Part shown: piece after piece, positions 9,701-39,356 of the stretch
How the letters are laid out: every line of letters begins with the position of its first letter
Position numbering within the stretch: the stretch's first letter is position 1
NCBI GenBank assembly: GCA_951406725.2
Contig: OX597824.1
Location: 53,940,001 to 54,004,000, forward strand
Reading direction: 5' to 3'
Source of the DNA: Octopus vulgaris
Lineage: Eukaryota
Length of the DNA stretch: 64,000 nt
Made by a program: the position numbers and the translations under genes
The notes under the pieces: generated by a model
Database searches by the model: none
Seen by the model: only the letters and a program-made list of their open reading frames with translations
What the model was told of the DNA's origin: nothing

Positions 9701-11744
9701 CCTCAAGCCGTAATCCCATCTCTTCCCATCTTTCAGCCATCTTTCAGCCATTGGCGGTCTTTTTTCCTCCTCTTACCATTACGATTCTACAATTTAAATT
9801 CCCAATTCAACTAACTTACTTCTTAAATTTCAACTCCCGATCGATGTCCGCAGCAAGTTCTTTAAAAATTTATCTTAATATTTCCATTCGTTGTTACTAC
9901 GTTTATTCATACATTGTTACGAAAATTTAACCTTTTAAGGCTACTTTCAAGCCTTCGCCATAACTTGATTTATCTTTCTATCTCTCTCTCTACAAAATTT
10001 AACCTTAGGCGAGGCTACCTCAAGCCGTAATCCCATCTCTTCCCATCTTTCAGCCATCTTTCAGCCATCTTTCAGCCATTGGCGGTCTTTTTTCCTCCTC
10101 TTACCATTACGATTCTACAATTTAAATTCCCAATTCAACTAACTTACTTCTTAAATTTCAACTCCCGATCGATGTCCGCAGCAAGTTCTTTAAAAATTTA
10201 TCTTAATATTTCCATTCGTTGTTACTACGTTTATTCATACATTGTTACGAAAATTTAACCTTTTAAGGCTACTTTCAAGCCTTCGCCATAACTTGATTTA
10301 TCTTTCTATCTCTCTCTCTACAAAATTTAACCTTAGGCGAGGCTACCTCAAGCCGTAATCCCATCTCTTCCCATCTCTTCCCATCTTTCAGCCATCTTTC
10401 AGCCATCTTTCAGCCATTGGCGGTCTTTTTTCCTCCTCTTACCATTACGATTCTACAATTTAAATTCCCAATTCAACTAACTTACTTCTTAAATTTCAAC
10501 TCCCGATCGATGTCCGCAGCAAGTTCTTTAAAAATTTATCTTAATATTTCCATTCGTTGTTACTACGTTTATTCATACATTGTTACGAAAATTTAACCTT
10601 TTAAGGCTACTTTCAAGCCTTCGCCATAACTTGATTTATCTTTCTATCTCTCTCTCTACAAAATTTAACCTTAGGCGAGGCTACCTCAAGCCGTAATCCC
10701 ATCTCTTCCCATCTCTTCCCATCTTTCAGCCATCTTTCAGCCATCTTTCAGCCATTGGCGGTCTTTTTTCCTCCTCTTACCATTACGATTCTACAATTTA
10801 AATTCCCAATTCAACTAACTTACTTCTTAAATTTCAACTCCCGATCGATGTCCGCAGCAAGTTCTTTAAAAATTTATCTTAATATTTCCATTCGTTGTTA
10901 CTACGTTTATTCATACATTGTTACGAAAATTTAACCTTTTAAGGCTACTTTCAAGCCTTCGCCATAACTTGATTTATCTTTCTATCTCTCTCTCTACAAA
11001 ATTTAACCTTAGGCGAGGCTACCTCAAGCCGTAATCCCATCTCTTCCCATCTTTCAGCCATCTTTCAGCCATCTTTCAGCCATTGGCGGTCTTTTTTCCT
11101 CCTCTTACCATTACGATTCTACAATTTAAATTCCCAATTCAACTAACTTACTTCTTAAATTTCAACTCCCGATCGATGTCCGCAGCAAGTTCTTTAAAAA
11201 TTTATCTTAATATTTCCATTCGTTGTTACTACGTTTATTCATACATTGTTACGAAAATTTAACCTTTTAAGGCTACTTTCAAGCCTTCGCCATAACTTGA
11301 TTTATCTTTCTATCTCTCTCTCTACAAAATTTAACCTTAGGCGAGGCTACCTCAAGCCGTAATCCCATCTCTTCCCATCTTTCAGCCATCTTTCAGCCAT
11401 CTTTCAGCCATTGGCGGTCTTTTTTCCTCCTCTTACCATTACGATTCTACAATTTAAATTCCCAATTCAACTAACTTACTTCTTAAATTTCAACTCCCGA
11501 TCGATGTCCGCAGCAAGTTCTTTAAAAATTTATCTTAATATTTCCATTCGTTGTTACTACGTTTATTCATACATTGTTACGAAAATTTAACCTTTTAAGG
11601 CTACTTTCAAGCCTTCGCCATAACTTGATTTATCTTTCTATCTCTCTCTCTACAAAATTTAACCTTAGGCGAGGCTACCTCAAGCCGTAATCCCATCTCT
11701 TCCCATCTCTTCCCATCTTTCAGCCATCTTTCAGCCATTGGCGG
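6758..11744 (+). repeat. Tandem array of 15 near-identical ~316-338 bp monomers
   Basis: Marker CATTGGC(G/A)GT recurs at about 6771, 7098, 7426, 7764, 8091, 8429, 8767, 9105, 9433, 9749, 10077, 10415, 10753, 11081, 11409 and 11736. Length varies with copy number of CCCATCTCTT and CAGCCATCTTT subunits. Confidence 0.95.
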
Positions 11745-12713
11745 TGCGCCCCCCCCCCACCCCCACCACCAATACCGATGAACACTGTTCTCACCCCCAC
11801 CACCAATACCGGTGAACACTGTTATCACCGCCAACACCACCAATACTGGTGAACACTGTTCCTCACCCCCCACCACCAATACCAGTATACCCTGTCCTCA
11901 CCATCTACACCGGATACGCCTTACTCATCTACACCGGGTAAGCCCTACTCCCTCCTCCTCCCCCCACTACCCCTTCTCCTCATATGCTTTCACTGGGAAA
12001 AGACAAGCTGCTAGCGCCATAGCTCATCAACTGCCCACCGATCTTACGCTTCCTCCGGACACTGCTCCATTCCGACTATCCCCCTTTAGCACCCTCCCGC
12101 CTCGTAATATCCTACGTTTTTATTTCTTAGGAACCTACACCAACCCTTCCTGCCATCGTTCCTCCTTACCCCAACCTTCCCCACTGGTTGCTCCCCTATA
12201 TTACCCACCTCAACTGGACCCCCCCTCCCCAACTCAACTCTAGAATATCTGTATTCTTTCCTCTACCTAATAACGTTACTCAGTGACGATAACGAATGTC
12301 TTTATTTCTTAGGAACCTACACCAACCCTTCCTTACTCAGTGACGATAAATGCTGTGACTACAAAGACCTGGGCTGCTTTCTGCAGCAATTCCACATACC
12401 CCCTACTCATTCTAAGTACCCCAGATCCCCAAAGTACCCCGGACCTCGTTGCCCCCGTGCCGCTGACACGTTAAAATGCTCGAACCGATCGTGACGATGC
12501 CGGACCCTCCGGCCCCTGTGCAGGTGGCACGTAAAAGCACCCAATCCACTCACGGAGTGGTTGGCGTTAGGAAGGGCATCCAGCCGTAGAAACTCTGCCA
12601 GATTCAGACTGGAGCCTGGTGCGGCCCCTGGCTTCCCAGACCCGGTCAAACCGTCCAACCCGTGCTAGCGCGGAAAGCGGACGTTAAACGATGATGATGA
12701 TGATGATGATGAT
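6758..12713 (+). mobile_element. Non-autonomous RTE derivative with 5 kb 5' monomer array (type A)
   Basis: Array 6758-11744, 5' UTR 11745-12300 (end matches window 1-58), junction to RTE 3' end (12350-12713 = ~3204-3600), (GAT)n tail, (TA)n on both sides. Confidence 0.88.
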
Positions 12714-13365
12714 ATCTATATCTAAATATATATATATATATATATATCTATATCTAAATATATATATATATATCTATATCTAAATATATATATATATATC
12801 TATATCTAAATATATATATATATATCTATATCTATATATATATATATATATATATATATATATATATATATATATATATATATATATATATATATATATA
12901 TATATATATATATATATATATATATATATATATATATATATATATATATATATATATATATATATATATATATATATATATATATATATATATATATATA
13001 TATATATATATATATATATATATATATATATATATATATATATATATATATATATATATATATATATATATATATATATATATATATATATATATATATA
13101 TATATATATATATATATATATATATATATATATATATATATATATATATATATATATATATATATATATATATATATATATATATATATATATATATATA
13201 TATATATATATATATATATATATATATATATATATATATATATATATATATATATATATATATATATATATATATATATATATATATATATATATATATA
13301 TATATATATATATATCTATATCTAAATATATATATATATATATATCTATATATCTATATCTAAAT
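12714..13365. repeat. (TA)n microsatellite
   Basis: Directly visible. Confidence 0.95.
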
Positions 13366-37061: not shown

Positions 37062-37605
37062 TATATATATATATATATATGTACGTATATATATATATAT
37101 GTATATATATATACATACATATATATATATGTATATATATATACATACATATATATATGTATATATATATACATACATATATATGTATATATATATACAT
37201 ATATACATACATATATATATATACATACATATATATATACATACATATATATGTATATATATATACATACATATATATGTATATATATATACATATATAT
37301 ATACATACATATATATGTATATATATATATATATATATACTTACATATATATATACATACATATATATACGTATATATACATATATATACATATATATAT
37401 ACATATATATACGTACATATATATATATACGTACATATACGTACATATATATATATATACGTACATATATATATACGTACATATATATATACGTACATAT
37501 ATATGTATATATATATACATATATATATACATACATATATATACGTATATATACATATACGTACATATATATACATATATATACGTACATATATATATAT
37601 ACGTA

Positions 37606-39356
37606 CATCATCATCATCATCGTTTAACGTCCGTTTTCCACGCTAGCACGGGTTGGATGGTTTCGACCAGGGTCTGGGGAGCCAGGGGCTGCCCCAGGCT
37701 CCAGTCTGGTCTGGCAGTGTTTCTACAGCTGGATGCCCTTCCTAACGCCAACCACTCTGCGAGTGTAGTGGGTGCTTTTTGCGTGCCACCTGCACAGGTG
37801 CCAGAGGGGTCTGGCATCGGCCACGGTCAGTTGGTGCTTTTTATGTGCCACCTGCACAGAAGCCAGTCGGGGCAGTGCTGGCATCGGCCACGTTCGGATG
37901 GTGCTTTTTATGTGGGGGGAGGGTGCAGAAATATAGGGGAGGACCAGTGGGGAGGGGTGTTCGGAGAAACGATGACAGGTTCTAGACAAGTAGAACGTAG
38001 GATATCACGAGAGGGGTAATGCATGGTGAAATAGCGTATTGAAGAGGGGGTTCGAAGAGTAGACACCTATAATGGTGGTGGGAGAAGCGACATCCGGTAT
38101 AGATGGAGCAAAAATATAGAGATATATCCGGTATTGGTGGTGGGGGTGGGCAAGGGCGGGTGCACCGGGAATATGCGAAGGTTGAACTTGACGGGCTGGC
38201 TTAAAAATACTCTTAGCAATGGAAGGGGGGAAAGGAAGAGGGGGAGGGCAGACAACGTAAAAGAGGAGAGAGAGAGAGAGAAGGGAATAGTGGAACCCCG
38301 CGAAAATCGGCCGCCATTGAAAAACCCCTGTATGGAGAAACTTAAATATAAATATCTATTCTGTATTTAGCGAGACACGAGGCCGGAAACCGATGGTCAA
38401 CAATAACTAATAAATTATACAGAATATGCAATACGAGGCGAAACTGAAAATAATAATAATAATAATACTAATAAACAAATTGTCGACTGGGGGTCAAAGG
38501 GATAATACTAATACTAATAATAATAATAATAAACAGCTTAACCACTAGAGATCAGACAAATTTGCATGAGAATATTACTGGTACAGATTACGGGATGAAT
38601 TAGATTAGAAAGATTTTCTTATCTTGGGAACATTTCGTTTTCGGCCTGACACACGGCGAATATGCGAAGGTTGAACTTGACGGGCTGGCTTAAAAATGCT
38701 CTTAGCAATGGAAGGGGGGAAAGGAAGAGGGGGGGAGGGCAGACAACGTAAAAGAGGGAGAGAGAGAGAGAGAAGGGAATAGTGGAACCCCGCGAAAATC
38801 GGCCGCCATTGAAAAACCCCTGTATGGAGAAACTTAAATATAAATATCTATTCTGTATTTAGCGAGACACGAAGCCGGAAACCGATGGTCAACAATAACT
38901 AATAAATTATACAGAATATGCAATACGAGGCGAAGCTGAAAATAATAATAATAATAAACAAATTGTCGACTGGGGATCAAAGGGATAATACTAATACTAA
39001 TAATAATAATAATAAACAGCTTAACCACTAGAGATCAGACAAATTTGCATGAGAATATTACTGGTACAGATTACGGGATGAATTAGATTAGAAAGAATTT
39101 CTTATCTTGGGAACATTTCGTTTTTCGGCCTGACACGGCGAATATGCGAAGGTTGAACTTGACGGGCTGGCTTAAAAATGCTCTTAGCAATGGAAGGGGG
39201 GAAAGGAAGAGGGGGGGAGAGCAGACAACGTAAAAGAGGGAGAGAGAGAGAGAAGGGAATAGTGGAACCCCGCGAAAATCGGCCACCATTGAAAAACCCC
39301 TGTATGGAGAAACTTAAATATAAATATCTATTCTGTATTTAGCGAGACACGAAGCC
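37606..39356 (-). mobile_element. Non-autonomous RTE derivative with ~485-bp 5' monomers (type C, ~2.4 copies)
   Basis: Monomer marker AATATGCGAAGG at 38170, 38659 and 39141; junction motif 38128-38166; body homologous to the type B element; (GAT)n tail. Confidence 0.85.

Follow-up and report, generated by a model that had tools for sequence, protein, structure and literature searches.

A 64,000-nucleotide stretch of the Octopus vulgaris genome (assembly GCA_951406725.2, contig OX597824.1, positions 53,940,001 to 54,004,000; hereafter the window, numbered from its first letter) was analysed for a family of RTE-like long interspersed nuclear elements (LINEs) in which repeat units, here called monomers, meet a C-rich leader, here called the tether, at a conserved junction motif. 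The window contains one autonomous LINE, whose 5' end lies beyond its edge (1-3599, + strand), four copies lacking the coding body (A, B, C and E) and a more distant copy, D. The autonomous LINE comprises a 61-codon upstream open reading frame (ORF) starting at 54, an open endonuclease-reverse transcriptase-PHD (EN-RT-PHD) frame of 1095 codons (68-3355), a 3' untranslated region (UTR) and a (GAT)n tail. The Pfam models Exo_endo_phos and RVT_1 scored above cut-off in 68-3352, placing an APE endonuclease and an RT within a single long ORF. A PHD-like finger follows the RT domain (about 2450-2590, + strand, ORF residues 796-839; Pfam E 6e-4, below cut-off), and PF00628 also occurs in many of the 120 database matches listed for this protein, among which the best relatives match at 52-53% over about 92% of its length.

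ORF1 is rudimentary in the autonomous lineage, being confined to the 61-codon upstream ORF, and the tether of A adds no Pfam-matching ORF. An absent or rudimentary ORF1 is a trait of the RTE clade (PMC3905857). The tail of the autonomous copy and of A, B, C and E is a short tandem repeat, (GAT)n, and not poly(A). Matches of the RT in PDB were to L1, R2 and group II intron RTs only, and neither NCBIfam nor PDB assigned the protein to a clade. The label RTE-like reflects the single EN/RT ORF, the rudimentary ORF1 and the (GAT)n tail; the long ORF1 and poly(A) tail of the L1 clade were found neither in the autonomous LINE nor in the other copies in the window.

Copies A, B, C and E consist of 5' UTR, 3' UTR and (GAT)n only. 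The original prediction had described them as RTE bodies, but none has EN/RT, and D, with an ORF fragment, is the only copy in which the motif and coding sequence occur together. By their sequence, the four copies without EN/RT are non-autonomous elements that have undergone internal deletion. Element A (6758-12711, + strand) has 15 monomers, a C-rich region of about 550 nt and then the last ~50 codons and the 3' UTR. Its tether (11744-12300) carries four CCACCAATAC-type repeats of 34 bp, and the last 57 nt match the autonomous LINE up to the upstream ATG (A 12244-12300 against autonomous 1-58, 96.6%). Beyond the deletion, the ORF end, 3' UTR and (GAT)n of A (12350-12711, + strand) match autonomous 3204-3267 and 3330-3579, with 258/260 positions of the tails identical. 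As the C-rich region ends on autonomous 1-58 and then jumps to the ORF end, A is an internally deleted derivative and the C-rich region is the true 5' UTR. Element E (3952-4561, - strand) is a deletion derivative of the A family without a monomer, 359/371 identical to A from 11794. It had been counted as a fifth junction, truncated within the motif, but its 5' truncation lies in the second copy of the 34-bp tether repeat, downstream of the junction, so that no fifth junction exists. E is a second, separate deletion within the A family, and B and C are a third deletion type with one common breakpoint.

The tether, deletion junction (near 19338), 3' UTR and (GAT)n of B occupy 18349-19585 (+ strand), and the tether, 3' UTR and (GAT)n of C, with the same deletion junction, occupy 37603-38165 (- strand). 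The bodies of B and C are about 95% identical (166/175 in the tether, 219/232 in the tail). Both parts are homologous, but there is no autonomous partner for B and C within the window. The tether of B is amplified internally at 18545-19337 (19-bp repeat x3, ~156-bp repeat x3.6) and the tail of C contains a 67-bp repeat x2; with the tether of A, this shows a lineage that readily duplicates UTR segments. Each element begins directly after a TA-rich run and the arrays lie within the unit running from (TA)n to (GAT)n. The first base is G in each of A-D. No microhomology is seen where A, B and C, a small sample, meet the flank, and PMC4245944 reports this for full-length L1 as opposed to truncated L1. 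A 15-mer unique to positions 16660 and 19587 lies on either side of a segment comprising element B, the 58-nt tail of a LINE (16692-16749) and ~1 kb of (TA)n; it may be the target duplication of B, later split by insertion and array growth.

The type A array (6758-11744, + strand) is composed of a 22-nt partial unit and 15 units of 316-338 bp, each with one or two copies of GCCATCTT, and the variation in length stems from internal repeats of 10 and 11 bp. Type B monomers (17743-18349, + strand) are 381 bp long and present in 1.6 copies, 226/226 identical in the overlap. Type C monomers (38166-39356, - strand) are 482-486 bp long and present in 2.5 copies, 468/473 identical among themselves, with a partial unit of ~135 nt beside the tether. 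These lengths are as originally predicted. The separation of B and C into different types did not hold, as their units are homologous (z 18-31, with 18-29 in 4/4 schemes of one comparison; 285/342 ungapped columns identical, 83%, plus large indels). By alignment there are two monomer classes, A and B/C, not three. The claim that A shows no similarity to B or C stands: no robust alignment of unit A to B, C or D was obtained using several scoring schemes, shuffles, real background windows and reversed controls, and an A monomer query found no match outside its own array (nhmmer, 64 kb). An inverted similarity of A to B (z 6.1, 1.4, 4.3 and 4.0 against shuffles) was dismissed as chance since 25, 92 and 18 of 274 background windows scored as high and it does not recur in C. 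A plus-strand match of A to B (z 5.1 in one of four schemes, 0/274 background windows) was likewise set aside, being a 24-nt pyrimidine tract for which the reversed control scored 30 against 33.

The ~5 kb of the A array contain 5 substitutions, all singletons and 4/5 of them CpG transitions (P about 1e-4), so the array was probably homogeneous at insertion and has been methylated since. Between B and C the monomers have diverged about threefold more than the bodies (Fisher p 6e-7 for the counts above). Units of one copy are nearly uniform, and from copy to copy the monomers diverge more quickly than the body. Furthermore, C joins its tether ~135 nt further into the unit than B does, despite the common deletion breakpoint, and the C junction is one of the two best matches (7/9 nt) to the B junction among 486 unit positions. 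The junction has been re-phased between B and C by re-joining with microhomology at the boundary.

The junction motif was located by pattern search at 11744-11775 in A (+ strand), 18349-18382 in B (+ strand) and 38131-38165 in C (- strand), and at 36232-36264 in D (- strand), where it differs from C by 3 substitutions and a short gap. Its GC-box and CACCC-box we take to be Sp/KLF-like sites. The pattern first proposed gave no match at 0 or 2 edits and precisely these four sites at 4 edits, and the motif lies within a few nt of the point where the tandem units of A, B and C end, as had been claimed. With the C copy alone as query, 13/13 windows scoring at least 30 lay within elements A-E, against best scores of 21-27 in 10 block-shuffled windows. 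A 20-nt degenerate version, built from the copies themselves, matched 4 times exactly and 7 times nearly where 0.01 matches were expected. CCCACCC is present in 4/4 junctions and CCCGCCC in 3/4, each occurring 7x in the whole window, and in none of the four does (TA)n separate the upstream segment from the motif. The junction opens with a near-palindromic 8-mer; a compensatory change within this palindrome is only apparent, as CpG decay on either strand would account for it. The suggested G-quadruplex (G4) on the complement has sequence potential, the junction of A being the strongest of 35 regions by G4Hunter and those of B, C and D fitting the G4 pattern, but it is not specific to the junction: monomers of C outscore the junction of C and G4 potential is common in the cores and C monomers. 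A scan of bacterial and archaeal genomes returned 5 loci, all chance matches of 21-25 nt in DNA of 59-71% GC. Four family motifs gave no match in the 4/8 supplementary files of PMC9115989 that were searched (4.1 M characters), a result that does not speak for the whole transcriptome.

The constant part is longer than the motif. With the motif removed, the tether of A still aligns with those of B and C (z 4.6 and 7.2, 0/200 shuffles each; 77/94 ungapped columns identical for A and C), indicating a C-rich, non-monomeric tether common to all three. The tether of D past the motif does not align (z -1.5 to 0.3). D contains an endonuclease fragment (35448-36014, - strand; frame broken near 35630, 3' part missing) with 70% DNA identity and 89/123 amino acids identical to the autonomous LINE, and is placed as its sister in a tree with 30 of the 120 matches listed (97/97 support, bootstrap not converged). 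Its leader includes, by eye, an intron-like stretch (GT...polypyrimidine-CAG, ~105 nt) immediately preceding the EN frame (36150-36044, - strand). The motif is the conserved 5' edge (first ~35 nt) of the tether and most likely a cis-element. D retains it while the remainder of its tether does not align, and it is better conserved than coding sequence, which argues for selection. Of the two roles originally suggested, the cis-element is therefore favoured over a passive crossover or template-switch site.

Upstream of its motif D has 344 nt without a full tandem unit (36265-36608, - strand), made up of three sub-repeats of ~55 nt and an unalignable last ~145 nt. The sub-repeat resembles one segment of the monomers of B (1 copy) and C (2 copies), with 42/48 columns identical to B. 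The upstream segment of D scored z 2.6-5.6 against B/C in 8/8 plus-strand tests, with 2-4 of 274 background windows as high (those inspected, in one scheme, were (TAT)n or (CT)n tracts), and as nhmmer query it gave 4/4 non-self matches to B/C monomers (64 kb). A junction phase shared by D and B was unsupported, 89/314 D windows scoring equally. Hence the tether of A is nearer to B/C than that of D is, while the upstream segment of D is nearer to B/C than that of A. If both similarities hold, they disagree, and one lineage would have changed its upstream module at the motif. This incongruence is the only evidence for a swap, and the weak similarity of D to B/C makes it weak evidence.

We regard it as somewhat probable that these copies represent an RTE-like LINE with a two-part 5' UTR of the rodent L1 kind, a monomer promoter plus tether, turning over at a conserved boundary. 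The tandem CpG-rich monomers would form a self-renewing internal Pol II promoter and the C-rich tether would run on to the ORF start. Transcription would start in an upstream monomer, so that each new copy begins mid-unit; the autonomous RT would copy the non-autonomous RNAs in trans via the common 3' tail; and the arrays would be rebuilt through duplication. Occasionally a template switch guided by microhomology may re-join or replace the upstream module at the edge of the tether, and at least one replacement would have brought in a new unit, either A or, in the reverse event, in D. For true module replacement, deduced from four copies and resting on D, we put the chances a little better than even. 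The original prediction of a constant 5' UTR core with an exchanged promoter module, as in mammalian L1, therefore holds for the layout and for the L1 comparison (CpG, YY1-like motif, phase shift and drop in identity at the B/C junction), with replacement itself only moderately supported.

Several features are consistent with the monomers being promoters. Their CpG observed/expected ratio is 1.32 in A, 1.09 in B, 1.04 in C and 1.06 in D, against 0.34 in the ORF and 0.53 in the background, at a GC content of only 33-39%. The CpG transitions in the A array are what would be expected of a promoter that became methylated once inserted. In mouse L1 Tf, 5' ends cluster at the putative YY1 motif GCCATCTT (PMC9022269), and the same motif stands at the 5' end of A, the array starting on its first base. 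It is in tandem in the A monomers, with 27/29 window copies in the A array, and the amplified 11-bp sub-repeat holds it; 52/5000 shuffled units contained it. Elements landing in (TA)n would acquire no host promoter, so a self-renewing internal promoter would be useful to them.

A number of points weigh against a promoter module exchanged at the boundary. GCCATCTT is absent from B, C and D, with C having only GCCGCCAT on the opposite strand. A 5' end on GCCATCTT has a ~2-5% chance with one copy and was noticed post hoc, as were the motif calls generally. There are four junctions only, and tandem arrays are not seen on an autonomous copy, the one at 1-3599 being cut by the window edge and D having no full repeat. 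The likeness of D to B/C is weak (nhmmer E 0.033-4) and the reversed-sequence control equals the B-D score in 2/4 schemes. The comparison of monomers with tails, proposed originally as a check for incongruence, gave the opposite outcome: the tails group A, E and the autonomous LINE against B and C, congruent with monomer type (A-B 86%, A-C 85%, B-C 92%). Finally, A and B units terminate at one and the same nucleotide, with a pyrimidine tract following in each. A single ancient duplication would also produce this, and for that reason the GCGG found in A and B at both the unit end and the motif start does not count as independent support for template switching.

The last two points fit an explanation without replacement, in which one ancestral monomer-plus-tether 5' UTR was inherited throughout, A is a homologue of B/C diverged past recognition by concerted turnover, the junction is shared by descent and the phase of C came from one local deletion. 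B and C monomers already diverge about three times faster than their bodies, so that A could lie beyond detection. The last 10 nt of the A unit also resemble the unit end of C, and A-C plus-strand comparisons gave z 2.5-2.6 in 2/4 schemes. However, the best strict A-B and A-C matches are pyrimidine tracts of 24 and 16 nt that reversed controls equal, the A query matches nothing outside its own array, and D, although more distant in its tether, still has B/C-like sub-repeats. We consider this explanation unlikely, though it deserves to be kept in view. Less probable still, and quite doubtful, is that the arrays are satellite-like repeats and not promoters, captured by or expanded in non-autonomous copies at a G-rich, recombination-prone edge. 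Tandem arrays are indeed found on ORF-less copies only, satellites of molluscs are often carried by mobile elements, in some cases with palindromes at their junctions (PMC5139131), the junction here has its near-palindromic 8-mer and G4 potential, and 15 units are extreme even for mouse L1, where 7/5765 loci exceed 10 (PMC9022269). Against this, all 5 substitutions in A are singletons, so there was no expansion after them, free monomers were not found elsewhere in the window (nhmmer, 64 kb), and CpG richness, the YY1-like start and conservation of the motif in D suggest function. It is very improbable that the monomers are heads acquired from a separate small RNA or ribozyme repeat, such as a short interspersed nuclear element (SINE) head or a retrozyme, through successive template jumps onto a bipartite RTE: bipartite RTEs with added heads and swapped 5' regions are documented (WALLSI1/1A, PMC5786205, which also cites RTE 5' ribozymes), but there were 0 tRNA genes, 0 Rfam matches at gathering score, no ribozyme or Pol III RNA family among 13 (A region) and 98 (C/D region) weak matches, and no hammerhead core or hepatitis delta virus (HDV)-like descriptor match in A-D, the descriptor being used without a positive control and the B region being covered by gathering score and descriptor only.

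By analogy, the arrangement of monomer promoter and tether would work like the rodent L1 5' UTR, yet on bipartite RTE-like elements that are not L1. As in mouse and rat L1 (A, Tf and Gf monomers plus tether; PMC9022269, PMC3600994, PMC5381506), tandem monomers, here rich in CpG relative to ORF and background, are joined to a conserved non-monomeric tether, A, B and C start mid-monomer, and unalignable monomer types sit on homologous tethers, mouse L1 tethers being homologous across subfamilies (PMC9022269). The truncated monomer beside the tether in C is matched in mouse Gf_I (PMC9022269). Unlike rodent L1, the element is RTE-like, with a single EN-RT-PHD frame, a 61-codon upstream ORF and a (GAT)n tail; the host is an invertebrate, the monomers are 330-485 bp with a GC content of 35-39%, the arrays here are on non-autonomous copies and the promoter role is putative. 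With bipartite non-autonomous RTEs (Bov-A, RTESINE1/2, WALLSI3, MAR4; PMC5786205, PMC3747384) the copies share a 5' and 3' UTR brought together by internal deletion, the lack of an ORF and of a tRNA head, and a 3' tail common to the autonomous partner. WALLSI1/1A are described with swapped 5' regions (PMC5786205). In contrast to bipartite RTEs as described in those papers, there are tandem monomer arrays here and elements reach 1.7-6 kb. A 23-nt RTE 5' motif quoted for Ceph-SINEs had 0 matches when as many as 6 substitutions were allowed. RTE-2_OV of Octopus vulgaris (PMC9115989), compared by description only, is likewise an RTE-clade single-ORF LINE, comparable in size (1109 aa), with a zinc-binding domain; unlike the present LINE it is described with a C2H2 finger, UTRs of ~600 nt and a microsatellite directly after the ORF. 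Neither 'monomer' nor 'tandem' occurs in the accessible main text of PMC9115989. No published description of monomer arrays on an RTE 5' UTR was found in a literature that excluded subscription papers and was mostly not at full-text level; sequences of such families may be contained in the supplements of PMC9115989, PMC13282606 and PMC5786205.

The bulk of the window is (TA)n arrays with nested LINE insertions. Other EN-RT LINE families are inserted in (TA)n at 13364-16651 (+ strand), 19818-23284, 23596-25282, 30500-31400 and 32800-32884 (all - strand); the first two have broken frames, and one of these families is 27% identical to the RTE-like RT. Two further (GAT)n tails of the lineage occur on the + strand: one at 47086-47243 belongs to a short truncated copy, matching at 78-80% along the aligned part with its flank, and the other, at ~51600-51860, is distant (66-68%) and could belong to the family of D. 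A 2-kb duplication (56041-58093 and 58968-61035, 98%) flanks a gap of 100 N (58868-58967) and is probably an assembly overlap. Possible remains of long terminal repeat elements are a direct-repeat pair of ~87%, 3.5 kb apart (40700-41481 and 44221-45055), and, separate from it, an integrase zinc-binding fragment (55163-55750, - strand). A SINE-like repeat has three copies (36675-37061, 58421-58864 and 61363-61789) and matches published primers for Octopus vulgaris long non-coding RNAs (PMC9115989): one 22-nt primer matches it 3x with 3 mismatches, and a 13-nt part of another primer gave 2 exact matches, each count being reached in 0/100 shuffles.

According to PMC5381506, mammalian L1 has often replaced its promoter, whereas L1 of lizard, frog and fish has almost never done so. 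A bolder proposal is that the rodent L1 solution of monomer promoter, YY1-positioned start and conserved tether arose independently in an invertebrate RTE lineage, which repeatedly swaps entire promoter modules at a single selected boundary; 5' UTR replacement would then be a general LINE response to host repression and no speciality of mammalian L1. This we hold tentatively, at somewhat less than an even chance. If true, the parallel in an invertebrate RTE-like LINE would be convergence across clades, making the arms-race explanation testable with different repressors, and the fixed boundary with junction microhomology would help to decide among the routes proposed for 5' UTR exchange (PMC3600994). 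Annotation would call such arrays satellites and such bodies SINEs, hiding the unit to which both would belong.

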